Positions 35,374 through 50,162 are shown, counted from the stretch's first letter. The stretch is DNA of 64,000 nt from Candidatus Bathyarchaeota archaeon (GCA_963768425.1 CAVYHV010000013.1:1-64000), one strand, 5' to 3'. Notes: a model not told the origin generated them from the sequence alone. Translations and numbers: made by a program.

Positions 35374-36171
35374 TCATCGGTTTTTTTCACTTCGCACGAA
35401 GAGATATGTTCCGATCACAAAGGACGCTATCGAAATTGCAGCGACTAACGTTAAATCGAGCAGTGGGTTGTATAGGGCTATTTGGCTGTAGAATGGTGTG
35501 CCTTGGTAGACTAGTCCTCTGAGCAAATCAACTATGTAAGTCATGGGCATGGCATGTGATAGGGCGCTTAAGATGCCGCTGGATTTGTTTATCGGTATGA
35601 ATGCGCCTGAGAGGAACATCTGGGCAAATGCGAACAGGATTACGCCTCTATCCGCATTTTTTGGGCTACTACTAAATATGCTGGCAACTAAAACGCCGAG
35701 AGTTCCGCCTGATATGCAGATAAGTGGCGCCAACACGAGGATCCAGCCGATTGCCGACAGCCCGATGGATATGCCCATAATTGGGGCGATGATGACGAAT
35801 GCGAAAAGCTGTAGTATGCTTGTGATGCTGCCTCCTACGATTTTACCGAGTATGATTGAATAACGCGATATTGGAGCTACGAAGATTTCCTGTGTGAAAT
35901 CGTTTTCTCGGTCTTCGACAAGTGATGTGACGCTCATCATAGTGTTCATGGATATTGTTGCTGCGACCATTCCTAAAAGCGCAAACTGAAGGTAGTTGTA
36001 CCCTAGACCGCCACCTAAGTTTTGCGCAATAACGCCACCCAGAATTCCCAGAAACAGAACCGGAAAGAGTAAGCTAAAAGCAAGCGAATTCTTCCAATCC
36101 TTAAAGAACCGCAATACCTCTCGGGCGGCAATAACTACAATTGCGTTTAGGTCTTTTTGAAGTGGCTTCAT
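35374..36171 (-). CDS. ABC-2 permease (DrrB-like)
   Basis: REVLRF, DRENDFTQEIFVAPISR, FLSGAFIP, PMTY. Confidence 0.9.
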   Translation of the reverse strand: MKPLQKDLNAIVVIAAREVLRFFKDWKNSLAFSLLFPVLFLGILGGVIAQNLGGGLGYNYLQFALLGMVAATISMNTMMSVTSLVEDRENDFTQEIFVAPISRYSIILGKIVGGSITSILQLFAFVIIAPIMGISIGLSAIGWILVLAPLICISGGTLGVLVASIFSSSPKNADRGVILFAFAQMFLSGAFIPINKSSGILSALSHAMPMTYIVDLLRGLVYQGTPFYSQIALYNPLLDLTLVAAISIASFVIGTYLFVRSEKNR

Positions 36172-37123
36172 CAGAACACGACCTCCTTGGTTTTATTTTC
36201 GATTAAATCCATGTAAGCTTCTTCGAGGGTCGGTGTATGGAGCTCCATGTAAGTTAGTGGCATCTTGATTTGTGCTAGAATTTGCTGTGGCGTTTGCTCT
36301 TCAAAATAGATTTTGACCTTACCGTCCACCGTAGTCTCTGACTTAAAGTTCTCAATCTGGGCATGCAGCATGCTTCGGTTTTCAGCATCTAAAACAAGGT
36401 ACTTGCCAAGTAACCGGTTTTTCATCTCGTTTGGTGTTCCCAGAAAAATAATTTGCCCATGATTAACGATGCATACTCTGTCAGCGTTTTCGGCTTCTTC
36501 GATGTAGTGAGTAGTGAGGAATATTGTGGTGTTTTGGTTTTTGGCTACTTTTCGTAAATAGATCCATAGATCTCTGCGGGAAACGGCATCTAAGCCTTGA
36601 CTTGGTTCATCTAAGAACAGCACTTTGGGCTTATTCATTAACCCGCGAATGATTTCTAGCTTACGCTTCATCCCGCCTGAGAAGGTTTTAAGGGGTTTGA
36701 ACAAGTCCTCGCGTATGCCCATAAACCCGGCCATCTCTAAAACCTGATTTTGATATTCCTTGGGCATAAGTCGAAAGAATGGCTTATAAGAATAGACGCC
36801 GTAGAGGTTTACGTGTAAACGGATATTTTCTTCAGCCGATAGGTTGAGGTCTAAGCTTGGGTTCTGGAAAATAATGCCTATGTTTTCGGCGGACGTTTTT
36901 TGCTTTAGTGTTTATGTCATAGCCTTCGATTGTTACGTTTCCGCTTGTTTTCGCCAAGGTTGTGGTCAAGATTGATATTGTCGTTGTTTTTCCTGCTCCG
37001 TTCGGTCCGAGAAATGCGAAGAATTCGCCGGGTTGCACATCGAAAGCTGATGTTGTCTACGGCTGGTTTCTCGGTTTTGCGGTAGCGTTTGGTTAGTTTT
37101 TCTACGTGTATGATTGACTGCAT
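36171..37123 (-). CDS. ABC-2 ATP-binding protein (DrrA-like), frameshifted
   Basis: [26 protein letters not shown] across three ORF pieces. Confidence 0.9.
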
Positions 37124-37142
37124 ATTTTCAGCCCTACTTTAT

Positions 37143-37216
37143 TTAACATTGTTAATGTAACTTAACGTAGTTAAATAAATACTTAACTGCGTTAAATAAT
37201 CAATTAACGTGGTTAA
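37143..37216. promoter_or_regulatory. Four tandem palindromic operators TTAAC-N3-GTTAA (putative TetR sites)
   Basis: Copies at 37143, 37162, 37183 and 37204 in the divergent ABC/TetR intergenic region. Confidence 0.82.
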
Positions 37217-37248
37217 ACATATAAACTGCCAACACCCAATCAACAGTA

Positions 37249-37923
37249 ATGAAAACAAGAAAAACCAAGACGCCACACATACAACCTGAAGCCGTCATAA
37301 AAGCCGCATTAGAAATATTAGACGCTGAAGGCCTAGAAAACGTAACCCTACGACGTATATCAGCAAAACTCAACGTGCAAGCACCAGCCCTATATTGGCA
37401 CTTCAAAGACAAATCAGACATCACCGACGACATGGCACAAGCCATACTCAAAAACTCAGGCTTAGACAGCATCACCCCGCCAGAGGACATAAAAAACTGG
37501 GACACATGGTTAGCTGAGCTAATGCATCGACTTAGAAACGCATTAATGGCTCACAAAGACGGCGGACGCGTAGTAGCAGGAGCAACATTCGGAAGAGCAT
37601 ACACACTTGAAAAAATCGTGGTTTCGACCACGAAAGTTCTCGAAAAAGCCGGATTTGATAGGCTCCACGCGAGCATAGCCACAGGTACAGCAATCGATTA
37701 CGTTTGGGGCTTTGTAATTGAAGAGCAAGCAGGAATGGCACCTCAAGCTTTCCTATCAGCCGTCGCTCAGCCTGGCGAAAATCCAGCAATCCGAAATACG
37801 TCTGAAGACGACGTGTATTTATGTTTAATAATGGAGGAATACCGCAAAACCACTCCGACCCAAATATTTGACTGGGGTTTGCAGGCAATAATGACTGGCT
37901 TGAAGTCGTCCTTAAACCGATGA
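37249..37923 (+). CDS. TetR-family regulator with TetR_C domain
   Basis: AALEILDAEGLENVTLRRISAKLNVQAPALYWHFKDK; GFVIEE; FDWGL. Confidence 0.93.
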   Translation: MKTRKTKTPHIQPEAVIKAALEILDAEGLENVTLRRISAKLNVQAPALYWHFKDKSDITDDMAQAILKNSGLDSITPPEDIKNWDTWLAELMHRLRNALMAHKDGGRVVAGATFGRAYTLEKIVVSTTKVLEKAGFDRLHASIATGTAIDYVWGFVIEEQAGMAPQAFLSAVAQPGENPAIRNTSEDDVYLCLIMEEYRKTTPTQIFDWGLQAIMTGLKSSLNR

Positions 37924-38373
37924 TGTGAATTCAAGAAAGTCGATATCTACAAATCGGGACATAGGGACTCGTAATATATAGGTGGAATAAGAATGCCAAT
38001 CTTGAGCACTTAGTTTAGGTGCCACAGAAGGCTTAACGTATAGAACTAGTTGGTCGGAAGTGAAGTTGCTTACAACGATATGAAGCCCCGCAAAACTATA
38101 TTTAGCTCCTTGAATTGCTACGAAACCTTGGCTTGAATTATTAACGAGAACTTGAAAACTTATATTCTGACCGCCACTTGGAGAAGGTAATAGATTCTGG
38201 AAGGTTACCAAAGAAGAAATATTGTCAAATTTTATGGAATATGGCTGAGAAGGAGTAATAGGGACTTTGGTGTAACCTGAGAGCGAATTGGCTGCAAAGA
38301 ATTCATAGCCAAAAAGGGCAATAACAACGATTGACACAAATAAAACAACCGTTATGATTTTTTTCTTCTGCAT
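37912..38373 (-). CDS. Membrane-anchored hypothetical protein
   Basis: N-terminal TM; similar layout to 46436-46939 (QGAKY/RGATY; LVLYV/LVISI). Confidence 0.6.
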   Translation of the reverse strand: MQKKKIITVVLFVSIVVIALFGYEFFAANSLSGYTKVPITPSQPYSIKFDNISSLVTFQNLLPSPSGGQNISFQVLVNNSSQGFVAIQGAKYSFAGLHIVVSNFTSDQLVLYVKPSVAPKLSAQDWHSYSTYILRVPMSRFVDIDFLEFTSSV

Positions 38374-38450
38374 TCAATGGGTTCCTCTATTTCCTCATTT
38401 ATGCTCTTTCTATCAATGCTGATTTAGCTTTTGCTCTCTGCGCTTTTTTC

Positions 38451-38723
38451 TCATCGCTTACCTTGGGAAAAGGTCATTGCTTTAGAAGAGGTTTTTTGAT
38501 GCAAAACTACCAAAGCAATAATTACGGCTACCAAAATTACGCTTACTATGAGGGAGTTTGTCACAGATAATGAGGGACCAGTACTGGCTTGGTCTGGAAT
38601 TGCGGTAGGAGTGGGCGTGGTTGTTATTTGAGCACTTGCAGGTTTAACTACCAGTAGACCCACACTTGAGATAGCCATTAATCCAATGAGAATCAAGAAG
38701 CAATTTTTGTTAATGCTTCTCAT
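38451..38723 (-). CDS. Minimal surface protein (signal peptide, linker, TM anchor)
   Basis: ..KPASAQ signal, TPTP linker, TM, HQKT tail. Confidence 0.6.
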   Translation of the reverse strand: MRSINKNCFLILIGLMAISSVGLLVVKPASAQITTTPTPTAIPDQASTGPSLSVTNSLIVSVILVAVIIALVVLHQKTSSKAMTFSQGKR

Positions 38724-38773
38724 ACTTTTTTGTTATCCCGTAGAGGCTATAAAAGCTTTCAGGTTAAACACTC

Positions 38774-38791
38774 TTGACTAACCTTAGTCAA
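38774..38791. repeat. Palindrome TTGACT-N6-AGTCAA, copy 1
   Basis: TTGACT AACCTT AGTCAA, 18 bp from the TATA box. Confidence 0.9.
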
Positions 38792-38828
38792 GCTTTCTCG
38801 ACCTAACCTTTAGGTACTCAGGTACCTA

Positions 38829-39956
38829 TTAGGAGGTACTGCGGTACCTCAAGTTAGCGATTTTTCGATGCCTTCTAAGAAGCAATATTGCGATGGCTAT
38901 AACTGCAACCACCACTGCAATCGTAATCAAAAAAGTTGTCAATGCCGTTGAAGACATTGAATAGATACTTACTTGCTGAGTTAGTGGATTATGATCGATA
39001 TTGTTTTCGTCAATTACGTAACTGCCTTGTCCTTTATAGTCACTCCAGTAGTTGCCGTCCCATGAAATAACATCTGTTACAGTAAACGGAGTGTTAAAGT
39101 CAGATTCTGCTTCTACTTTTACTTGACTGGTATTATTTAGGAAATTGTTCTCGGTAACTTGATTGTTTTTTCCAATGATGTCATATGGAGGCGCTATGAT
39201 AAATCGCTCTAAGTAAATACCAATAAAGTTACCCTGAATAACGTTGTTTTCCACTGAGCAGTTATTGCAGTCAGACGTAAAATCAAGACCGAAGGTGTTA
39301 TGAGAAATTATATTTGAGTGAAAATCAAACGTTGACCCAAATGACGAGCCTTCAAAATTATGTGTTATTGTATTATTATACATGTCTAAATAGCCGTTCG
39401 CACCAGCAACGCCACCGTTGTTATCCATTATAATGTTACCAGAAAGTTCTACGTGATTAGGTGGTGACTCATCGTTTTGAATATCATAATAGCTGGGGTA
39501 GCCATTAATTTGAATTCCCTGACTATTGTTGAGTATATTGCAGTTCACAATCTTGCCATCAAGCCAGTTACCGAATACGTCAATCCCTCTACTGGCATTT
39601 TCAATCGTAAAATTTGAAATGAAAAAATTACCCTCATTTAAATTAACCTCAATTAGAGATAAATTGAAATATGGATAACCTAACCCGTAACCTATCAAGT
39701 AGGTGGTATCTGGATTTTCTCCAACAAGATTAAGCGCTTTACTGATATCTATTGTCTCATTATAATAAACTCCGCTCTTAACGAAGACAGTATCTCCAGC
39801 ACTTGCATTATTAATTGCGTCTTGAATGGTTAGGTACTGGTCTGGAACAACAAGGGTTCTGGTTTGTGCTCTTGCGGTTGAAGATGGTATTAAAACTAAG
39901 GACATTGTGAATAATAGAACGAGCAACAATGCGAAACTCGTGTTCATACTGCCCAT
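38829..39956 (-). CDS. NosD/CASH beta-helix surface protein
   Basis: VPDQYLTIQDAINNASAGDTVFVKSGVY, PbH1 repeats, GNYWSDY..YVID..NIDHNPL, TM followed by RRHRKIANL. Confidence 0.88.
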   Translation of the reverse strand: MGSMNTSFALLLVLLFTMSLVLIPSSTARAQTRTLVVPDQYLTIQDAINNASAGDTVFVKSGVYYNETIDISKALNLVGENPDTTYLIGYGLGYPYFNLSLIEVNLNEGNFFISNFTIENASRGIDVFGNWLDGKIVNCNILNNSQGIQINGYPSYYDIQNDESPPNHVELSGNIIMDNNGGVAGANGYLDMYNNTITHNFEGSSFGSTFDFHSNIISHNTFGLDFTSDCNNCSVENNVIQGNFIGIYLERFIIAPPYDIIGKNNQVTENNFLNNTSQVKVEAESDFNTPFTVTDVISWDGNYWSDYKGQGSYVIDENNIDHNPLTQQVSIYSMSSTALTTFLITIAVVVAVIAIAILLLRRHRKIANLRYRSTS

Positions 39957-40006
39957 GCTTCATAATAAGAAATTAAAAGCGATAAAAGGATACTCGTCAA
40001 CACTCC

Positions 40007-40024
40007 TTGACTAAGCTAAGTCAA
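40007..40024. repeat. Palindrome TTGACT-N6-AGTCAA, copy 2
   Basis: TTGACT AAGCTA AGTCAA, 18 bp from the TATA box. Confidence 0.9.
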
Positions 40025-40047
40025 AGTTTCCTTACTGACAATGCCAT

Positions 40048-40690
40048 CTACGCTAAAGGTAATTCACCAATCCATATTGCGTCAAGCTGAAAACCTGTAA
40101 TTTCCTCATGACTTGTAACAGCCAAATAAATAGAAATGGTACCTTCATCTCCACCATTCATCCATGTTTCAGACCAAGCATCAGGTGGCAGGTCAAGATG
40201 CACCAAATCAGTTGAGTTAATTTCTTTAGTTCCGCTGAATATCTCCGCTGTCATGAAAGCATAGACTTGCGCCGATTTCGGGGCAACAGTTCCATTTGAG
40301 TAGTACAAAGTTATCTGGTTTGGCGGCAGGTTCTGTACTGAATAATCGTTTCGAAGCGTAACATTGATGACAATACAAGGCTCCCCCTTAATGACAGCTA
40401 TTTTCCCCGCTGGTTTTCCGTTTATTATTCCCATGCTAGTTCTAGTATCAAATGGGTAAGAACCAGAGCTGACGTTTGCGGAAACTACGAAGATTTTGCT
40501 AGTGTTTCCTCTAAAAGTAAGATAATAGCCTGTGGTTGGTTGGATTGGAGCAATAGAGGGCTTTACAACGCGTGAAGAAGCCGAAATGACAACCGCAATG
40601 TAAGAAAAAAAGAATCCACAAAAGACCATGATTACGATTAAAGCTGCAACCGCATATTTGTATTTCTGCCATTTACCAGATTCTTGCAAT
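40048..40690 (-). CDS. Membrane-anchored hypothetical protein (start uncertain)
   Basis: TM YAVAALIVIMVFCGFFF and GEPCIVINVTLRNDY domain; the ORF-track N-terminus (MTFSH) comes from the repeat motif. Confidence 0.6.
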
Positions 40691-40805
40691 TTACCATTTA
40701 CCCTGCTTAACCATTTTTCATAGTTGCTTTTTAGACTATCTTTTAGAACATCAAACGTACAAATCGTTGGGCAGGGACTATACACCCAACCGTGGGAAAA
40801 GGTCA

Positions 40806-41105
40806 TTATGTATTATTCTTTAAAGGGTTCTGTTTTGTTTCTTTGCTTATTAGCAGTTTTATTATGAAGCATACATTTACTACCAAAAAGAGAACGAAGA
40901 CATAGAATGGAAAGTTAGCCATTGATATTGCAATCGGAACAATAACTTGTCCTGTCTGTGCTGGTGCTAAGCCAATGGTGGTTAGAGTGTAGCCAGTTAC
41001 TACTGAACCGTTGATTTCTGAGAGCATTAGTTGGCTGGAAAGATAAAGAAGCAAACCTATCATAACATTGGCAGTGAGGATGACAGCTGTAAACCTTTTT
41101 GTCAT
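40806..41105 (-). CDS. Small membrane protein
   Basis: Two TM segments, basic tail. Confidence 0.6.
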   Translation of the reverse strand: MTKRFTAVILTANVMIGLLLYLSSQLMLSEINGSVVTGYTLTTIGLAPAQTGQVIVPIAISMANFPFYVFVLFLVVNVCFIIKLLISKETKQNPLKNNT

Positions 41106-41461
41106 GTTTAGCCTATCTCTACGCTATGCAGATTTAAGAGTTATCCACTCTGTAATAGCGAAGTTTCTAACCCTTGAATTACTCGTTAATAGCCCTAATC
41201 GTTTAAAGCATTCTGGAAACTTCAACCATTACGTTCCTTTTTTAGAATGTTTCTTTAGAGAAATTCTTTCCATAATTGATGCTTGACCATAACTGGTTGG
41301 TCCCCTAAATGCTGGGTTAGGTTTACCCCTCAAAGCTTTTACTTGTCTCTTAGCTGTTTTTATTTTCTTTTTTGATTTGTTTTGTCCTCTTCTTTTCCAT
41401 GTTTAATCTCTTTCTACGCTTTTCAGATTTAAAATTTATCTCCTTACAAATAGCGAAGTTT

Positions 41462-42826
41462 CTAACTCTTGAATTTGCTCGGTAATAGCCCAAAGCACTT
41501 AATGTAAACTTCTGGTATGCTGTGGGAAAGGGTCACTTGCTTCAAGTTAGCTGTTTTTTGATGCTTTTTATGATACACAGTAAGACTTACTCCGACAGCA
41601 ATTACTATTACAGTTACGAGAATCGCTATCACGAACTCAGAGGAAAAAGGTTCTGACTTGGCAACGGTAAAATCGATAGTTTTGGAAGCACCCATTATTC
41701 CAAAAGTGCTGTTAGCATAAACTGTAATGCTGTGTGAGCCATAAGCAATGTTTGGTATGGTTGTGTTGCCGTTGATTGTGACATTAATTTGTTCGTCAAG
41801 GCTATAGCCTACCCAATTAAACGGCTTATCTATAGAGAATGCCAAAGAAACGTTAGCATTGTCATACACCTTATTCAATGGCGACATAACTGAAACTTTA
41901 GGCGGAATTATTTCCTGCTCATAATTTGCAAGAAAAGACGAATTGACGGGTCGAATAAGCGGATAACGGTCTATATTCTGTGAATCTAGCACGTATGGGC
42001 TATCACTTATTCCTGTGTTGCCAATTTCTTTCCCCGTTTGTACTCCCCAATAGTTTCCACCAGCAGGAAAGCCACCATCCCAAACGTTTACGGAATTAGG
42101 AGTATAAGGAATTCCACCCAAATCGCCATTACTAGCCTGCGTTCCATACGGTATGTCCATGAGGTTATTGTGATAAATAGTGTTATTAGAAGCATGCCAA
42201 AACCAAATTCCGCAACTTGTAAGACCGTCTTGACTTGCGTTATCCACGATGTCATTATTAGTAATCAAGTTCTTTTGCGTATTATCAAAAAACATTCCAG
42301 TAGCATCATTCAAGATTAGATTTCCAGTTATGATGTTTGAATTTCCACCTTCGACATCAATACCATTGAATGCCTCACCGTTCAATTCCCAAAGGCTCCA
42401 TATACTGAAAATGGTGTTGTTTACAATCATAACATTTGAAGAATTGGATAACAAAATACCGTCCTCAGCCCCACCATCTTCAGGGTAGACAACATTGGAA
42501 CCAAACTGATTTCCTGTAATAACAAAACCATTTACTGTTATGTTTGAATCTGCATATAACAAAAGACCATTGGATAAGCTAAATCCGTTTCCATCAAGTA
42601 CAATGTTGCTTCTATTCACGGTTATGCTTCCGTCTATGTTACTCGTCAAATTATAGGTGTTTCCAGATGGAACTATTGGTGCTGATGTTGGAGTTATGCT
42701 TCCGTCAACGTTTATTGTGACATTGCCTTGATATTGAGCCTTAACTGGTTGAAGATAAACTACATTTGAAGCTATCAGGCATAGAAGGACTAAACTGAAT
42801 GCGATAATACCTCTACTTTTTGCCAT
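41462..42826 (-). CDS. NosD/CASH beta-helix surface protein with Ig-like domain and TM anchor
   Basis: INVDGSITP..YNLTSNI, IYHNN, GNYWG..IDRYPL, YSLD..TINGN..GSHSITVYA, TM followed by KKHQKTANL. Confidence 0.88.
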   Translation of the reverse strand: MAKSRGIIAFSLVLLCLIASNVVYLQPVKAQYQGNVTINVDGSITPTSAPIVPSGNTYNLTSNIDGSITVNRSNIVLDGNGFSLSNGLLLYADSNITVNGFVITGNQFGSNVVYPEDGGAEDGILLSNSSNVMIVNNTIFSIWSLWELNGEAFNGIDVEGGNSNIITGNLILNDATGMFFDNTQKNLITNNDIVDNASQDGLTSCGIWFWHASNNTIYHNNLMDIPYGTQASNGDLGGIPYTPNSVNVWDGGFPAGGNYWGVQTGKEIGNTGISDSPYVLDSQNIDRYPLIRPVNSSFLANYEQEIIPPKVSVMSPLNKVYDNANVSLAFSIDKPFNWVGYSLDEQINVTINGNTTIPNIAYGSHSITVYANSTFGIMGASKTIDFTVAKSEPFSSEFVIAILVTVIVIAVGVSLTVYHKKHQKTANLKQVTLSHSIPEVYIKCFGLLPSKFKS

Positions 42827-42875
42827 AATTCTACATTCAAGTTGTTTGCAATAAAAGCGTTCTTGTATACGTTTC

Positions 42876-42893
42876 TTGACTAAGCCAAGTCAA
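42876..42893. repeat. Palindrome TTGACT-N6-AGTCAA, copy 3
   Basis: TTGACT AAGCCA AGTCAA, 18 bp from the TATA box. Confidence 0.9.
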
Positions 42894-42944
42894 AGTTTCT
42901 GGACCAAACCTTGCGGTGGTCATTGCGCGATTACCGTACCACAG

Positions 42945-43550
42945 TCAAGCTTCTTGTTCTTTGTTGGATGAAGATAGGAAGTTTACGCCTATAGCTATCA
43001 TCCAAATAAGTTGTGGATAAATTATCATTCTTTCCATACCGCCCACGCCAATTCCCAAGTAGCTTGGACGTGCACCAAAATAAAGCACGAGAGCGACAAG
43101 CGATACAACACCCAATATTACGGAAAAATACTTGAAAGGACCCCTGATTATCTTGTACGAGGCAATTGCGGCTATGCTCCAAAAGACAAAAACCATGAAT
43201 GCGCCGATGGTGTGAATGACTGGGGTTCCATGAACAATAAATGAGTTTTCAGGAAAAATACCCGCTAAAAGATAGCCTAAACTTCCCAGAAAAATGGAAG
43301 CTGTGATTGCCCGACTCTTGAATTCACGGTGAATAAAATATACACTTATTAGAGCCAATAAGCTTAGCAAGATTGTCGATGGGTCCTCAATTATGGCAGA
43401 GGGTTTACCCCATACGCCTAGGTCGCTTATGTAGTTCAAAGACGTGCTGTAATTTGGATAAACCGCTTGTGCGAGTAAAATTGCTATGGTATGCTGTGCA
43501 GCGGCAATAAAAAGTAAGGCTCCAGCCAGTGTCTTGTTGCTATAATTCAT
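42945..43550 (-). CDS. DUF998-family membrane protein
   Basis: YPNYSTSLNYISDLG, GIFPE, H..GA, GGMERMI. Confidence 0.85.
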   Translation of the reverse strand: MNYSNKTLAGALLFIAAAQHTIAILLAQAVYPNYSTSLNYISDLGVWGKPSAIIEDPSTILLSLLALISVYFIHREFKSRAITASIFLGSLGYLLAGIFPENSFIVHGTPVIHTIGAFMVFVFWSIAAIASYKIIRGPFKYFSVILGVVSLVALVLYFGARPSYLGIGVGGMERMIIYPQLIWMIAIGVNFLSSSNKEQEA

Positions 43551-43620
43551 AACTCGAAGGTAAACTGCTTAATTATTTAAAGCTTGATACTGATTAAAAA
43601 AGCCTATTCGTAAAGGTTTC

Positions 43621-43638
43621 TTGACTGAGCTAAGTCAA
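43621..43638. repeat. Palindrome TTGACT-N6-AGTCAA, copy 4
   Basis: TTGACT GAGCTA AGTCAA, 18 bp from a TATA-like box. Confidence 0.9.
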
Positions 43639-43684
43639 TTTTTCTTGACCAAGAGATTGAGTGGGTACACCTTTGGGAAAAGGT

Positions 43685-44606
43685 CTATTGATTTAGTTTA
43701 GCGGTTTTTTGATGCCTTCTTCTATAAAAAACCAAGCTCAGAACTACTACTACTATGACGAATACTGCCGCACTCAAGGCAATAGCTATACTTAACGTTG
43801 GCTGGTTAGTCGGTGGAGGCAAAAAAGCCTCAGTCTTCACAAGATAGATATTGCCCGACATGGGAATATTAGACGCAAAATATCCGACTCCCAGTATAGC
43901 AAGTGCACCGTCAGAGGTTTCAATCACCGAACTTACCGTAAGAGAAGCAGGTAGGCTTGGAGCATATCCATAAGGAAGTGTATAGTTCAAATTTAATACC
44001 CATTGGGTGTTATTGTTGGAATCGGTCTTAATTATGAATCCACCTGTCCAAAAAACGAACCCATCATCGCTTGTTCTAATTTTTTCCGATTGATGAAGAA
44101 GTTCCACCCAAATTTGGTACGCTTGAATAGTTCTTGTTAGATTCAATGTTTCCTTCGGAATCCATTTTGATAACGGTTGGGTATGACTCATGAGGAGGAA
44201 GTTCATAATTACCCCAATTCCCTGAAACTTCAAGACCACCATCGCTTGTCTGCTTAATTGCCGTTCCAGCAAAGTTACCGATGGTTTTTGTCCAATTGAC
44301 ATTTCCTAAAGAGTTAACCTTGTAAACCGTTGCTGGTACAAAAGTATCTTGAAATCCCCAACCTTCGTCCATGAAGGCGTATCCACCATCACTTGTTTGA
44401 ATCAGATTGGATACAGCTTCAACACCTGAATTATTGAAATAATTACCTGTACTGTTAAAATAATTATCATAGTTTTGTTGCCAAGCAAGAGCTGGGGCTT
44501 GATTGTTTGACTGAGCTTTGACAATGGTTGGTTGAAGATTGAGTAAAGGTGTTAGAAGTAAAATAAGAATACCCATTAAAGCCAAACGTTTGTTCATTCT
44601 ACTCAA
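43685..44606 (-). CDS. Surface protein with QTSDGG beta-propeller repeats and TM anchor (frameshift near 44090)
   Basis: Repeats IQTSDGGY, KQTSDGG, RTSDDG, ETSDG with KxDxxGNxxW; tail RRRHQKTAKL. Confidence 0.8.
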
Positions 44607-44665
44607 TCTCTTCCTTAACCTGTCATGGGAACTATGCAGCGATAAAAGATTCCAGTAAAAGTTCC

Positions 44666-44683
44666 TTGACTTAGTTTAGTCAA
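44666..44683. repeat. Palindrome TTGACT-N6-AGTCAA, copy 5
   Basis: TTGACT TAGTTT AGTCAA, 17 bp from the TATA box and 5 bp from the IS end. Confidence 0.9.
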
Positions 44684-44688
44684 CGTTT

Positions 44689-46356
44689 GAGACCGTGTAA
44701 AAAATCGCATAACGACCGCTTGATAGCTTGAAAATTACACAGCACTATTCTCGCTTTTTCTTTTTCTTTGTTTATCTTTTAACAAGCGCACCGATTAGAG
44801 CTTCAACTCCAAGAATGTTCAAAGCTCTCCTCAAATTATAAGAAAACAAAAGCAACCCAATTTCCCCACTTACCTTCCTAAGACCTCTTAGCAACAAATA
44901 AGGAGCACCAAAAGCCCTCTTAACTGTCCCAAACGTATGCTCAACCACCTTTTTGCGCTCATCCATAACTTCTGGATGAGATCTCATTCGTTTTCTCATA
45001 TCGTCGACAACTTGCTCATGGACCCAGCGCCAAATCAACCGCCCCTTTTTGTTGCCTGTACATTTAGTCATAAAAAACTGGCAAGAAAAACAAACACCCT
45101 TCAAGCACTTGTAAATTCGCCTATCCACCCCATCCTGAACTGTACAGCAGTGAAAGAACAGGCGCTGTCCAGCCGGGCAAACATACAAATCAGCATCATT
45201 GTCATAGCGGAACTTGTCAGCGGTAAACTCTGGCGAAACTATACTTCCACCGCTTCCCGACCTCTTCACCGCAACAAATGGTGTAACTCCATTATCGACG
45301 CACTGCTTGATCTGCATAAAATCAAAATAACCCTTATCCCCAAGAGCATCAATCTGCTCAACACCCAGTGTTTCTTTAGCGCTTATAGCCACGCCGCTTA
45401 ATTGATTTAGGTCTGAGGCTTCGTTAGTCACCAAGTAGTTAACGATGAGGTGGTTTTTTGAATCTACAGCTGCCTGCATGTTATAGCAGGATTCTACTCT
45501 GCCATGACTCATCATCTGTCGACAATCCGGATCGGTCAAAGCAACCTCGTTTTGACCACTCTTTTGCATTCTGTCAAGGATTGCTTCAGATTTCTCTTTT
45601 TTCTCAAGTAAAGCTGCAAGCTTGTCTACTTCAAAAGCTTTAGCTTCTTTGCCTGCTTCGCTACTGGCTTGGTGCTCGTCAGATGCTTCCTTCTCATCTT
45701 GGGCATCCAACTCTTCAAGATAATGTTTTACTGATTTTTCCATGATCTTTATTCTTTTCGCAAGCGCTTTTTGGTTAAAGGCTTTATCGTTGGAGTTGAC
45801 GGCCTTTAGTTTGGTGCCGTCAACGGCTATTTGTTGTGCCCCATAGAGACTGAGGTCTTTTAGGAAGGCTACAAAGTCCTTGAATAGGGCACCTATTGCC
45901 TGTGGGTTGTCTTTTCTGAAATCCGCTATTGTTTTAAAGTCAGGTGTTAAGCCTTTGAGTAGCCACATTGCTTCGAGGTTTGTTTTGGATTCTCGTTCTA
46001 GCTTTCTGCTTGATCGGATGTGGTTTAAGGCCTCCGTAGAGGTAGAGTTTGCAGAGGTCTTTTGGGTTGTATGATGGTCTTCCAAGATCTTTTGGTGTTG
46101 AGTGGGTGAAGCCTAACTTTTCCATGTTAAGCGTGTTTACGTAGGCATCGATGAATCTGACCGGGTTGTCCGTTTGTACGTATTCTTCTATGGTTTTAGG
46201 CAGCAGGAACGTTTGGCTTCTGGATAAGCCTTCTACATAGCTGTTGGTTTCGTTGTCCATTTGTCTCACCTTACCCTTTGTGAGCCATTGCTATGTGTCT
46301 AGATTTAAGGTTAACGGGATTCTAAGCGATTAAGAGAAGACTTTTCACACGGTCTC
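44689..46356 (-). mobile_element. IS1182-family insertion sequence (1668 bp)
   Basis: Terminal inverted repeats GAGACCGTGTAAAAAATC / GAGACCGTGTGAAAAGTC (16/18); contains a transposase; no target duplication visible. Confidence 0.9.
44772..46269 (-). CDS. IS1182-family DDE transposase (frameshift near 46035)
   Basis: GRPSYNP..KLYLYG, IRSSRKLE..WLL..PDFKTIADFRK, VDGTK, TDPD, YNMQ, DKGY, YVCPAG, RKKVVEHTFG. Confidence 0.93.
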
Positions 46357-46361
46357 AAACT

Positions 46362-46379
46362 TTGACTTAACTTAGTCAA
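46362..46379. repeat. Palindrome TTGACT-N6-AGTCAA, copy 6 (inverted context)
   Basis: TTGACT TAACTT AGTCAA, 5 bp from the IS end and 18 bp from the TATA box CTTTTATC at 46398. Confidence 0.9.
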
Positions 46380-46435
46380 CGAAGTTTTACGAAAGGCCTT
46401 TTATCGTTTGAGAATTCGTTAATAAATTAAAGGTA

Positions 46436-46939
46436 ATGAGAGAAGAAAACAATGAAGACAATCAGTGCCATAATTGTAGCCCTTGTCATGGTTCTAATAG
46501 TTTTTGCAATAATAGGTTCAATGTCTTTGTGTATCCAATCGTAGCGGGTCAGAAACTAACTCTCCCAAATGAACAATGGGTACAATACAAACAGGGTTGG
46601 AAACTGATTTCATTTCATTATGTGCAATATGGTGCCATTTCCGCTATACTTTATGACCAGTTGTACGTGGAAGCTGATAATTACCCTTTGAATAATGGAT
46701 TTCCAGTGGGTCTCTACCCTATTACTCGAGGAGCTACCTACAATATGGATGGCACGATGAGAATAACGATATCAGAAATAAATTCGAATTATTTGGTTAT
46801 ATCTATCAGTTCTTCATTAAAAACATCCTTTTGGCAAACCACCAGCATAATATACATAATAGTAATCGAAATCTTGTTAGCCGTAATCATCGCACTACTG
46901 CTCCTGAGAAAACGAAAAACCGCTAACCTGAGTGAGTAG
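46436..46939 (+). CDS. Surface protein with TM anchor (true start probably 46452, frameshifted)
   Basis: MKTISAIIVALVMVLIV.. signal in another frame; TM followed by RKRKTANLSE. Confidence 0.65.
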   Translation: MREENNEDNQCHNCSPCHGSNSFCNNRFNVFVYPIVAGQKLTLPNEQWVQYKQGWKLISFHYVQYGAISAILYDQLYVEADNYPLNNGFPVGLYPITRGATYNMDGTMRITISEINSNYLVISISSSLKTSFWQTTSIIYIIVIEILLAVIIALLLLRKRKTANLSE

Positions 46940-47433
46940 ACCTTTTCCCACGAAAAATTGAAGAACTCACTGTTGCCATAGACTTAAACACTCTGGAAAT
47001 TCAAGAGCACGAAAGTTAAAAGTTATCTTCACCGAAAGATGAGTCAGGGAGTCAGTTTGAATCTTTTTCTGACCACGTTTTTTGTGTTTTTAACTTTTTG
47101 CCGAGAGAATAACAGTTCTACAAGGTGCTGGCTTCGGATGAAAGACCTAGGGATTTTGCTTTAGAATGGTTTCGATCATATCGCCCTGAATTCTCAGTTC
47201 CTTTGAAAGAAATCGACGAGAGGGCAAACTTCTTCAAAGATAGTCAGTTAGTTTATTAGCTGTAAACCTACAAAATATTTTTTATAAATAAAAATTAAAC
47301 ATCTTGATTCAAATTTTTCATAGTGGTAGAACCTAGAAAAAAGTACTAATAATGGTCCTTTCTTGTGCAAAACAAAAAATGGTCAGATAAGAAAGCTTAA
47401 GTGTTAAACCATCCATAAAAGTGCAGAGCGCTC

Positions 47434-48602
47434 ATGAAGTTGAAAGGTTCGCCTCTTAATCTGAACGTTTATGAAGCTTCTGAAACGCTGACAAACAAGC
47501 ATTTTCAGCAATTCAAAACGGTGGATTTTGAAAGATTCTATCTTCCTGAGAGCATGCGACCTTTCACTGACCTCATCCCTGTTGGCAAGAAAGAGTTTAT
47601 CGCGGATGACAACCGGGGAGCAGTTTCTACTTTACCCGCATTAAAATAGACGGCATGGACTTTTACCTATCAGTTAAAGGCATAGGTTCAACCACTAACC
47701 CGTTTTCAACTCAGCTCCTCGGCAAAGACGAAATATGCAGCCTGCTAAAGGATTCCATACTGAAAGACAGAATCGTGAATTCCGAGGGAATCGCTCCAAG
47801 ATACCTTACGGGGGAACTATGGTTAAGAGGCTCTCCATATGGTGGACAAGGACTTGAGCACGCGGCTACTGCGTTGAGGGTGTCAGAATTGGCTGCCCTT
47901 ACGTCTATTCACGGATTTAGAGTCGCGCCAGTTCTGAAAATCGTTTTCCTTCCCCCAGACCTTGAGAATGAAATCAAAAAAATATTTTGGTACCGCAGAT
48001 TCGCGGGCAAAATAGTTCAAGAAATACGGCTGGTTCCTTCTAACGTCCGAATTTATTTTCACGCAGGGAGCACAGTCGGAGGCAACATACACTCAATTTT
48101 TGACTTGTTTGGATTGGACAACAACGATAAAGCAGTTGATTTTCTGAAAAATTTCGTTAAAACCGGCATCGCCTACCTAACCCTGTTCCCCCGGACACTA
48201 AAGAAAAACGAAGATGGAACTTTTTCTGGCTTGGATTTCTATGATGTCTGGCTTGACAAGGACGCAGTGCTCGCTCCAGATGGCACTATTTACTTCGTTG
48301 ATCTTGAAGGGCTGGAATGGATAAATGTGGAGGAAAAGAAAATCTTGGAGAAGATTGAGGACCAGATCTACAGGTCCCTGTACGAATTCATGTATGCGTA
48401 TGAACAGATAGAACGAGAACGATTTGCAAGGTTCGGAGGTGTGGCTGACAGAAAGCTGCAGTTTGAATATCTTCTCAAGCAAACCCTCAGGGATGATGAA
48501 GTTATTGGCCTTGCAAGTGAGGGACAAAGTCTTAAGCTGGTCATCGGTAACATTCTTGGGGAACAACGTTTAACTAAAAAATTCCCAATCATGGACTGGT
48601 AA
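47434..48602 (+). CDS. Kinase-fold protein, distantly SelO/YdiU-like (frameshift near 47645)
   Basis: ADDNRG, LSVKGIGSTTNPFS, IRLVPSNVR, DKDAVL..IYFVDLE. Confidence 0.6.
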
Positions 48603-48612
48603 TTAAAATGAA

Positions 48613-50162
48613 ATGCAACGACGTAAGAATATTTTTCTCCCAGGTAGCTGGGAAATCAATTTCAATGCAGATTCCGCAAGCAGACCTGGATTTTTCTTAA
48701 GTGGCGGCTACCTTTCTGTGATGCAAAAAGAAGATTATGATCAGGCTTTAACCGAAGTTTCAAAATTGACGCAAGAGAACGTGGACTTGGCGAGTGAAGA
48801 GAACTCAGAAAGGGGCGCGAAGACCGCTCTGGACGAAGAGGAGAAGAAAACTCATTCTATAAAGTTTCTTTTTGAAGGAAAAGAGAACAAGGAAGCTGAA
48901 CGCGAGAAAGTCGATAGCGAAAAGAACGTTGTCTCAAAAATGGACGCTGACATAGCTGAACGAGACAACAAGATAAAAGAGCTAATCCAGAAGAAATCTA
49001 ATATTGACAGAATGGTGCCCTACGAGCGGAAAATATGTGTCGCTCACGGGCTTAGGCGTAATCACCTTAAACGATCTCAATGTCAGAAACTACAGGGTTT
49101 CCGCCAACGAGTTCTCAGACTTCATCGAAGAAACCACGGAAACTACCGATGAACTCAGAACCATAGCATACAAAGCCAACTTCTATGCGAACAGGTTCAA
49201 AGCTGAATTTCCAGAAGCCGACCTTTCCCAGCTTTGGAGCGTCTCAGTGGGATTGGGAAAGCTTCAGGGCGACCCCGACCAAATCAGCCAAAGATTCCTG
49301 CAAGCGACTGGCAGCCTGCAGCATTTCAAATCCACCGTCGAAAATAAGATGATGGCGGCGGAAATTATGACTGCCTTCAGGGGCAACCAATCTCAGCCGT
49401 TAATGGATTCCGACTTGCAGAACCTTTCAGCAACCTTGGGAAACCTTGACAAGGAAGTCAGACACGACAAGGTTCCAAAAGAGTTGTCGGTTGGGGTCGC
49501 ATGCCATTATTCTATTCGGAAGAAGATTTGACGGAACATTCCCTACTGACAGATTTGCGCAATTTTCCAAAATGACTTCTTCACCTGAATCAGCAGCAAT
49601 TCTAGCCGTGGTAAATGTCCCTTCAGACCAGCTGACGGCTAAATTCCAATCTTTCAGGTCAATGTTTGGATCCTGGGGGTACGAATTGTCGGAGGACACC
49701 GAACTTGCTTCTGCATATTTATCGATTTCAGATTTGGGTCCCGGCGAAGTAAACACGAAGTTGACAATAATCGTCGACGCCCTTAAGAACTACCTTGAGT
49801 ACCCCCTCGTCGCTTCCGCGATACTTGCGTCGATACCAACACTGGAAGCAAACGAGACCCTTGACTTGATGCAGAAAGCCTACTCTCTGCTTGGAACCCA
49901 AGCCACAGATCTGTTCCCCCCTGAACTACTGAGCCTTTCAGTTAGGATGATTCATGGAATCAAGAACGAGTTGGTGAAAGAACTTGATCCAACCGCGAAG
50001 CTCACCAATACCCCGATGCAGTTCACATACATCCCGTCAAACATATTCTTCTTCTATTATGGACCGCTGATTGTTGCACATTCATATTATTACTCCACTT
50101 TCAGCGGGATTGGAGGCTTCCATCCTGCACATGTGCACGGTGTAGGAGGATTCATGGGTTGA
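48613..50162 (+). CDS. Coiled-coil plus helical-repeat hypothetical protein (three frameshifted pieces)
   Basis: Overlapping ORFs 48613-49152, 49004-49531, 49446-50162; C-terminus FHPAHVHGVGGFMG. Confidence 0.6.

Follow-up and report, generated by a model that had tools for sequence, protein, structure and literature searches.

A candidate phased upstream activating module marks surface-protein genes in Bathyarchaeia

Results

A gene array with recurrent palindromes

We analysed 64,000 nucleotides of DNA from a Candidatus Bathyarchaeota archaeon (GCA_963768425.1, CAVYHV010000013.1:1-64000; the whole stretch is called the window here), of which positions 38,451 to 47,433 are shown. They carry an array of genes, mostly for predicted secreted or membrane proteins, headed by the palindrome TTGACT-N6-AGTCAA (Table 1). 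A previous reading by a model from the sequence alone (the sequence-only reading) had described six copies of this palindrome. A pattern search recovered all six (38774, 40007, 42876, 43621, 44666 and 46362) with the spacers it had listed (AACCTT, AAGCTA, AAGCCA, GAGCTA, TAGTTT and TAACTT). These are the only matches in the window, and none occurred in any of 100 dinucleotide-preserving shuffles. The distance given from palindrome to TATA box is also correct, with 18 bp at five sites and 17 bp at 44666; the T/A-rich box reads CTTTTAT at five sites and CTTTTTTAAT at 43621. The distal flank AGTTTC..GACC (plus strand) is present at four sites and was cut by an insertion sequence (IS) at 44666 and 46362. 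Read on the gene strand, the flank 5' of the palindromes is (G/A)GTC.AGAAAC.

The genes had been described as single and mostly unrelated. Pfam identified two NosD/beta-helix proteins and a DUF998 protein as named, and the small open reading frame (ORF) with a signal sequence and a transmembrane helix (TM) as well as the QTSDGG-repeat ORFs have no family match. A single gene between each pair of sites is not what the locus holds: three ORFs lie in the interval 40024-42876, two of which (40806-41105 and 40048-40806) are probably driven by the same promoter as the first (module 3 in Table 1), and the interval between the fifth and sixth site is occupied by an IS of the IS1182 family whose frameshifted DDE transposase is split into two overlapping frames (44772-46085 and 45940-46269). 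With this transposase, the statement that no recombinase is visible holds for tyrosine recombinases alone, of which Pfam finds none in the array. Likewise, a TetR gene beside an ABC-2 transporter had escaped the statement that no cognate regulator is visible; we do not regard it as the cognate factor, as it pairs with the transporter and is syntenic in relatives without the array. The DUF998 gene retains a TATA box of its own (TTTAAATA) about 26 nt upstream of its ATG. No Rfam family matched within 36000-49000 at E values up to 0.1. Scans for sigma-70 promoters and terminators are uninformative for an archaeon, and a crude genome-wide look for a general consensus of TATA box and B recognition element (BRE) gave weak peaks only.

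A promoter module with invariant arms recurs in the genome

The assembly that includes the window (G000; 2.96 Mb, 33 contigs) encodes RadA and an RPB9-like zinc ribbon, as would fit an archaeon. It contains 20 exact palindromes versus 0.26 expected. Copies with one mismatch are hardly enriched (12 versus 9 expected), so the arms are kept nearly invariant. A weight matrix built from the oriented sites recovered 26 modules of about 60 bp, each composed of a distal half-site, an A-rich spacer, the palindrome, 18 bp and a TATA box; one further copy is truncated by another mobile element. Throughout these modules the arms do not vary and the linker between them does. The spacing to the TATA box is 18 or 17 bp in 25 of the 26, the exception being interrupted by an IS110-type element. 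Of 21 genomic occurrences of a purine-rich stretch followed by the CTTTTAT core, 18 are inside a module. The similarity common to 27 genome junctions extends over about 75 nt only, and sequence beyond it is shared just by subsets of paralogues.

In 13 of the 26 modules a start codon follows 49-51 nt past the palindrome, about 23-25 nt past the TATA box, and 11 of 21 modules from other species have it at the same position. As the ATG falls where an archaeal transcript is expected to start, these genes would be leaderless. The same module stands upstream of unrelated genes, including those for NosD proteins, the DUF998 protein, a GH32/43-like protein and a winged-helix-turn-helix (wHTH) protein. 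Most downstream products begin with a signal-like hydrophobic N-terminus, as judged by eye, and NosD/beta-helix proteins recur. Many also end, again by eye, in a C-terminal TM with a basic stretch and then a KTANL-like tail behind it, for example those encoded at 38829-39956, 41462-42826, 43685-44302 and 46436-46939 in the window and by regulon genes on other contigs. Some other regulon proteins end in ..PEF.., a TM and basic residues and resemble, by eye, archaeosortase signals, which we take to be of the PEF-CTERM-like kind; no archaeosortase sorting-domain model of NCBIfam matched any of 27 regulon proteins (30 proteins scanned) at E values up to 0.01. The scan of the genome and its relatives with TATA distances that the sequence-only reading had proposed thus returned a near-constant spacing and a downstream class of mostly signal-peptide proteins.

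The 16-bp unit, its conservation and its phasing

Closer reading resolves the module into two tandem copies of a 24-bp stretch. In each, GTCAA is followed by a GAAAC-N centre rich in A and this by TTGAC, for which the proximal copy has TTTAC. The palindrome is not the basic element; that element is a 16-bp unit, GTCAA-GAAAC-N-TT(G/T)AC, with 5-bp inverted arms about the A-rich centre. The unit always points toward the gene and is present in two, sometimes three, directly oriented copies per promoter. In pairs with a TATA-like box behind them, 7-10 bp separate the end of the proximal unit from the box, mostly 8 bp (27 of 45 pairs). In the genus of the window the starts of the units are 24 bp apart, and the 3' arm of the distal unit together with the 5' arm of the proximal one reads as TTGACT-N6-AGTCAA. 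N6 is thereby the linker between two putative protein-binding sites, and for this reason it is free to vary.

Of the 24 other genomes of the genus, 19 carry exact palindromes, with 1-10 copies each. Among 16 genomes from other genera of the order, one has a single copy without the promoter layout. Eight of 11 loci fetched from the genus passed the matrix threshold, and together with further loci 21 modules with the same consensus were obtained. A search for the unit (GTCAAGAAASNTTGACT) reached further. Across the order it matched in 26 of 121 genomes, compared with one match in total for the reversed control. By lineage, the unit was found in six of ten genomes of the window's genus, in three of three from two sister genera, in 15 of 16 from a genus of another family and in one of 25 from a third family; the remaining searched genomes of the order gave no match. 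A member of the unit-rich genus in the other family has no exact palindrome. In that family the units are again directly oriented and the proximal one lies about 8 bp before a TTTTAT box, with a longer distance between units. The genes behind them encode signal-peptide proteins, including ETSDGG-repeat proteins like the QTSDGG gene of the window and NosD-like proteins, and also a radical-SAM enzyme. Some unit pairs of the other family (L154, L157, L158 and L159) have no evident TATA box or ORF; they are followed by a conserved GC-rich stretch (..ggctcgctgctg..cggtt..), possibly a non-coding RNA gene.

Start-to-start distances in 45 distinct unit pairs fall into three classes, 24-25 bp (19 pairs), 33-35 bp (10) and 43-45 bp (16), with none between. 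Among the 24-bp pairs, many came to light by way of the palindrome. The 24 pairs of the other family were retrieved with a single unit, which leaves their spacing unbiased by the search. A whole-genome scan of the present assembly for units, likewise not ascertained through the palindrome, gave distances of 24 bp (four pairs), 25 bp (one) and 35 bp (two). What is a 6-nt core in the window measures 5, 7, 17-19 or 27-29 nt in other promoters and lineages. Distances that change in steps of about 10 bp require both sites to remain on the same helical face. Such quantised spacing indicates helical phasing and would be the signature of proteins that touch each other.

Insertion sequences at the unit

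The IS in the window was assigned to the IS1182 family by its DDE transposase (NF033551, 305.7 bits versus a cut-off of 270). Inverted repeats are present in all four copies examined (Table 1) and an AAAC duplication in three of them, the window copy being the exception. All four inserted after GTCAA-(G/A)AAAC of a unit, in the GAAAC spacer. In the window, the element is bordered on either side by a palindrome-side flank, a configuration suggestive of an IS-mediated inversion; the orthologous promoter in the relative G056 retains the distal half-site that the IS removed in the window.

A second family also meets the unit. The left ends of IS110-type (DEDD) elements abut GTCAA in three of three cases (contig C30 117045-118330 in locus L013, C6 from 173380 and C28 from 19281), and their ORF matches the Pfam families DEDD_Tnp_IS110 and Transposase_20. 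Both ends are defined only for the C30 element, which separates GGTCAA from GAAACT in a module and has GA at each joint; what the remaining two copies have in common with it is confined to the first 250-460 bases.

Turnover of the array

The three closest relatives match the window at 84-89% identity up to about 37900, the 3' end of the TetR gene, and carry pieces of the array elsewhere in their genomes. A five-module array in G056 has one gene in common with that of the window. A stretch of 691 bases (42910-43600) with the DUF998 gene is 96% identical to a module-free copy in G053 (L060), while the flanking genes are 86-89% identical, which suggests a recent transfer or conversion of the gene with its own promoter. 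The homology runs out on one side at the TATA-like box (5' edge) and on the other where the next module starts (first base). With both flanks different, the G053 locus does not represent a simple empty site. None of five DUF998 orthologues elsewhere has a module and all retain their own TATA box about 26 nt before the ATG; the juxtaposition of gene and module in the window is therefore derived. In G016, the sequence upstream of the beta-helix orthologue belongs to another neighbour beyond the module edge, and the distal arm has decayed. Measured from the palindrome, each of the three breaks in homology that we examined is either 16 bp before it or 18 bp after it. The comparison of gene order that had been proposed thus found arrays that are not syntenic between species, with these breaks at module edges and none inside N6.

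Four DNA runs gave only low-depth contigs of 100-400 bp over the stretch. One read contig, 92% like the window and with a short side of 36 letters, connects 46368 with 42880 in opposite strand orientation; its probable origin is a relative in which the IS adjoins another module, and it was not used as evidence. A second joint (38690/43598, side of 22 letters) is too weak to use.

Candidate binding factors

Among all unit-like sites scanned, the only module-driven gene that does not encode a secreted protein codes for a 318-aa protein (contig C9, 261756-262709) with a Cys-rich N-terminus, three winged-helix regions (HTH_45, 36.6 bits; HTH_5, 23.5 bits) and a variant module upstream. Its orthologues in two other species keep the module, and in a sister group from four genomes without an exact pattern match a module-like sequence is still found upstream. 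Its distribution counts against it as the binding factor: within the other unit-rich genus only two of 16 genomes have the family (with 36-37% identity), and the module-linked type was not found in three genomes with 8, 3 and 11 units. No near relative was found among solved structures. We regard it as a tentative candidate, more probably a mere member of the regulon than the protein that binds the units.

A widespread paralogue of this protein has a TATA box directly followed by two ATGACG-NN-TGTCAT palindromes, which share a TGAC core with the unit. This arrangement is conserved over several genera (L163-L175, L178, L179, L181 and L182) and looks like autorepression. The promoter of this paralogue in two species (L163, L166) and the left ends of IS110-type elements (C6 173375, C30 118336) have an 11-mer in common, GTCAAGACGGG, which may be chance.

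Two other groups of proteins were discarded. Four of the six best paralogues of small HTH_45 proteins lie 1.7-3.4 kb from modules in this genome, but only two of 80 loci with close homologues (880 kb) contain modules. Membrane-tethered wHTH (DUF7347) proteins near two clusters occur in 11 of 24 genomes of the genus and were not found in G013, a 100% complete genome with eight sites. We found no regulator that recurs beside the arrays of relatives. Matches to the RAM domain of Lrp/AsnC proteins (PF01037) number 37 in this genome, 9-29 in other unit-bearing genomes and mostly 3-15, at most 19, in those genomes of the order sample that lack it. Lineages with the unit have roughly twice as many, with genome size and kinship as confounders, and this points to an Lrp-family factor as a lead only.

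Further features of the window

Frames are split in several module-driven genes and in the transposase, in the window at 43685-44606, 46436-46939 (with 46452) and 44772-46269 and elsewhere at C1 2573, C9 276604 and C10 172613; these are either pseudogenes or assembly errors of a metagenome-assembled genome. The gene at 46436-46939 is probably frameshifted. A GTACC-rich, partly palindromic element with four GTACC/GGTACC words occurs at 38803-38850 and also near C17 231386, C19 31083 and C1 1110. With only three to four sites in the genome, it is placed between the ..KTANL tail or stop codon of one gene and the next module and could be a terminator or a second binding site.

Table 1. Promoter modules, genes and insertion sequence of the array (window coordinates unless a contig or locus is given)
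Feature	Position	Strand	Remarks
TetR-family regulator	37249..37923	+	beside ABC-2 transporter, left border of array
90-aa protein	38451..38723	-	signal-like N-terminus, C-terminal TM; paralogue on contig C1
Promoter module 1	38748..38803	-	distal half-site, palindrome 38774-38791, 18 bp, TATA; drives 38451-38723
NosD/beta-helix protein	38829..39956	-	signal-like N-terminus, C-terminal TM and basic ..KIANL.. tail
Promoter module 2	39981..40036	-	palindrome 40007-40024; drives NosD-like gene 38829-39956
Two ORFs (99 aa, membrane-like; 252 aa)	40048..41105	-	without own module, 3' of 41462-42826
Beta_helix/NosD protein, 454 aa	41462..42826	-	signal-like N-terminus, C-terminal TM and ..KTANL.. tail
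Promoter module 3	42850..42905	-	palindrome 42876-42893; drives beta-helix gene 41462-42826
DUF998 multi-pass membrane protein	42945..43550	-	Pfam
Promoter module 4	43595..43650	-	palindrome 43621-43638; adjoins DUF998 gene
QTSDGG-repeat secreted protein	43685..44606	-	two overlapping frames (44076-44606, 43685-44302); tail with TM and ..KTAKLNQ
Promoter module 5	44641..44688	-	palindrome 44666-44683, 17 bp to TATA; distal half-site lost to IS
IS1182-family insertion sequence, 1668 bp	44689..46356	-	terminal inverted repeats beginning GAGACCGTGT
Promoter module 6	46357..46405	+	palindrome 46362-46379; distal half-site lost to IS
167-aa ORF	46436..46939	+	C-terminal TM and RKRKTANL tail; signal-like start (46452) in other frame
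IS1182 copies	window 44689-46356; C6 125432-127111; C10 172631-174309; L058 in relative G045		three in this genome, one in G045

Discussion

Six palindromes in an array of surface-protein genes had been read either as sites of a cassette-shuffling recombination system or as part of an activator regulon. We think it likely that they form the centre of a conserved archaeal promoter module of about 60 bp and that this module serves as a phased upstream activating site (UAS) for a dimeric regulator of surface-protein genes. A dimeric DNA-binding protein would occupy each unit, and the dimers would contact each other along one face of the helix and bind two or three phased units cooperatively. The proximal dimer, placed just upstream of the expected position of the BRE, would help to recruit TBP and TFB and thereby activate transcription of genes that encode mostly secreted or membrane-anchored surface proteins. 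In the passages of PMC2995911 that deal with the archaeal regulators Ptr2, LysM and Ss-LrpB, a dimer site lies a few bp upstream of the BRE at a highly constrained position, further upstream sites follow at whole helical turns so that the dimers are on the same face, and activation proceeds through TBP. The module has all the sequence-level features of such Lrp-type activating sites and is therefore read as a UAS. The alternative of an activator regulon in the sequence-only reading agrees with these results: the site-TATA spacing is near-constant genome-wide, the layout is kept in other species and the units are phased.

Several observations weigh against this interpretation. The core promoter, with its TATA box and purine-rich stretch, looks strong, which would not be needed if transcription depended on an activator, and the sequence would look no different with a repressor or dual regulator. 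Both binding and activation are deduced from the DNA. The conservation counts come from related and thus non-independent genomes, signal peptides were called by eye only, and the orthologous promoter of the close relative G016 lost its distal arm while the gene looks intact. Finally, the module at 43621 precedes a gene that has its own TATA box and whose product, the DUF998 protein, is not secreted.

The best-surviving alternative is that the module is the operator of a repressor or dual regulator, whose dimers would occlude or lock the BRE and TATA box and keep the surface genes silent until a signal arrives. This is unlikely in our view. In its favour, the proximal unit directly adjoins the BRE/TATA region, the core promoter appears strong, and the paralogues of the sole DNA-binding protein found behind a module have palindromes 3' of their own TATA box, the usual place for archaeal autorepression. 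Moreover, Lrp-like regulators activate or repress according to the position of the site, as stated in the same part of PMC2995911. However, every unit is found upstream of the TATA box, clear of both the box and the start site, and a constrained site just upstream of the BRE is what that account gives as the arrangement of an activator.

The association of two IS families with the unit raises the question of whether the module also has a role in genome rearrangement. Cassette-like turnover of the arrays is real in the sense that gene content differs between species and that two IS families target the module; the crossover within N6 that the term originally implied found no support. An operator module might double as a genomic address, in that both IS families home to GTCAA-GAAAC and promoter-gene units are exchanged at its borders, which would diversify surface proteins between species and perhaps within populations. 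We offer this as a doubtful extension, somewhat less probable than repression, and a dedicated shuffling role is possible but unproven. Distinctly less probable still is the view that the module is chiefly a landing pad or exchange point at which IS homing and recombination between modules shuffle promoter-gene units, with regulation being only half its role. The insertion of every IS1182 copy at the unit, mostly with a duplicated AAAC, the left ends of all three IS110-type elements at GTCAA, one of them inside a module, and the flanks of the window IS would fit this view. So would the loss of synteny beyond 37900, the breaks at module edges, the module-free DUF998 orthologues and the single gene common to the arrays of the window and G056. 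On the other hand, intergenic spacers are so short that any gene-sparing break must fall near a module edge, and the breaks examined number three. No circles, alternative junctions or inversions were seen in the short, low-depth contigs, the module itself is not bordered by terminal repeats or target duplications, and the strict conservation of the arms together with the phasing demands a binding protein anyway.

It is very improbable that the module is a mere promoter copied along with duplicated genes and recognized by no dedicated factor. Many downstream genes are indeed paralogous at their 5' ends, with MG..KSFAL signal peptides, and some share 3' tails. Simple copying does not agree with invariant arms around a free linker, with the same module before unrelated genes or with a unit that is kept in a second family at other spacings quantised by about 10 bp.

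We give hardly any credence to the proposal that the sites are Xer/dif- or pdif-like tyrosine-recombinase cores that move single-gene cassettes by crossover in N6: the inverted 6-bp arms around a 6-bp spacer, two Xer-like integrase genes 200-650 bp from modules in the C30 cluster and the position of three of the five integrase matches passing the Pfam cut-off within 4 kb of a module are outweighed by a symmetry that stops after 6 bp and gives way to direct rather than inverted repeats (GAAAC, 5-6 bases), by spacers that all differ in the window and take many forms among the 20 exact genome sites, by a core that measures 7 or 17-29 nt elsewhere, by the array without a tyrosine recombinase, by breaks at -16 and +18 from the palindrome, and by an integrase family that occurs in 11 of 16 genera, mostly without the motif, and has the palindrome at none of 29 of its loci in relatives. 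The C30 genes (105944-106840 and 110302-111201, L013) are paralogues (68% identical, about 300 aa) inside a five-module cluster; their family is present in multiple copies, often as fragments, throughout the order.

Overall, the best reading of the module is that of a new, sharply defined and phased operator or UAS that would mark a surface-protein regulon in two families of Bathyarchaeia. These archaea are uncultured or barely cultured and are abundant in soils and sediments. Among the titles and abstract openings that we screened, we found nothing on transcription regulation in Bathyarchaeia or on this motif; the hits appeared to concern primers or unrelated studies. The rules of the cis-element, namely arm sequence, orientation, 8 bp to the TATA box and a unit spacing of 24, 34 or 44 bp, and a regulon of secreted or anchored proteins would allow the surface proteome to be listed computationally. 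The module could be used directly as bait to pull down the regulator and is a candidate strong promoter for genetic tools. Its quantised spacing over two families represents a natural experiment on helical phasing in archaeal activation. Furthermore, the homing of two IS families to a host operator, if general, would be an unusual link of regulation to genome plasticity.

Target-specific IS, such as IS110-family elements that enter repeated palindromes and members of the IS1182 family, also insert at one defined sequence; here the target is a putative host promoter operator unit. We know of no two unrelated IS families that share such a target as described here, and no search aimed at this was made. 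Putative mobile promoters place the same promoter sequence before unrelated genes, which resembles the repetition of about 60 bp before non-homologous genes. In the module, however, the linker is free while the arms are fixed, and the unit is older than the genus. We also found no terminal inverted repeats or target duplication at the module borders, in contrast to a mobile promoter or miniature transposable element.

Xer/dif sites and pdif modules likewise have two inverted arms around a 6-bp centre and single genes between sites. Their recombinase-binding arms measure about 9-13 bp compared with 6 bp in the module, and partner sites of Cre, Flp, Xer and lambda Int need matching overlap regions, whereas the centres of the module are unlike each other and variable in length, with no linked recombinase and no junction in the centre among the three breaks examined. 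A regulatory parallel is the Thermococcales glycolytic motif, which is bound by TrmBL1/Tgr. It too is a short palindrome with a fixed spacer, occurs in many promoters of one functional class and determines the outcome by its position relative to the BRE and TATA box. It differs in sequence, consists of a single palindrome rather than phased tandem units and serves sugar metabolism instead of surface proteins.

The sites of Lrp/Ptr2-type activators, such as Ptr2 of Methanocaldococcus jannaschii at fdxA/rb2 and LysM and Ss-LrpB of Sulfolobus, come closest. They combine a palindromic dimer site at a constrained position near the BRE with additional upstream sites in helical register on the same face, and PMC2995911 describes their binding as cooperative. 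Both a constrained dimer-like site and upstream sites in register are present in the module, the latter in 45 of 45 pairs. Still, the module is not a simple copy of these sites. Its GTCAA half-site has a 5-6-5 geometry (6-4-6 when N is C) as opposed to the 5/6-3-5/6 arrangement of Lrp sites in the abstract of PMC2715240, and its regulon of about 26 surface-protein promoters contrasts with the few metabolic genes of Lrp-type activators. Unlike in Lrp-type sites, the distance between units takes three quantised values across lineages.

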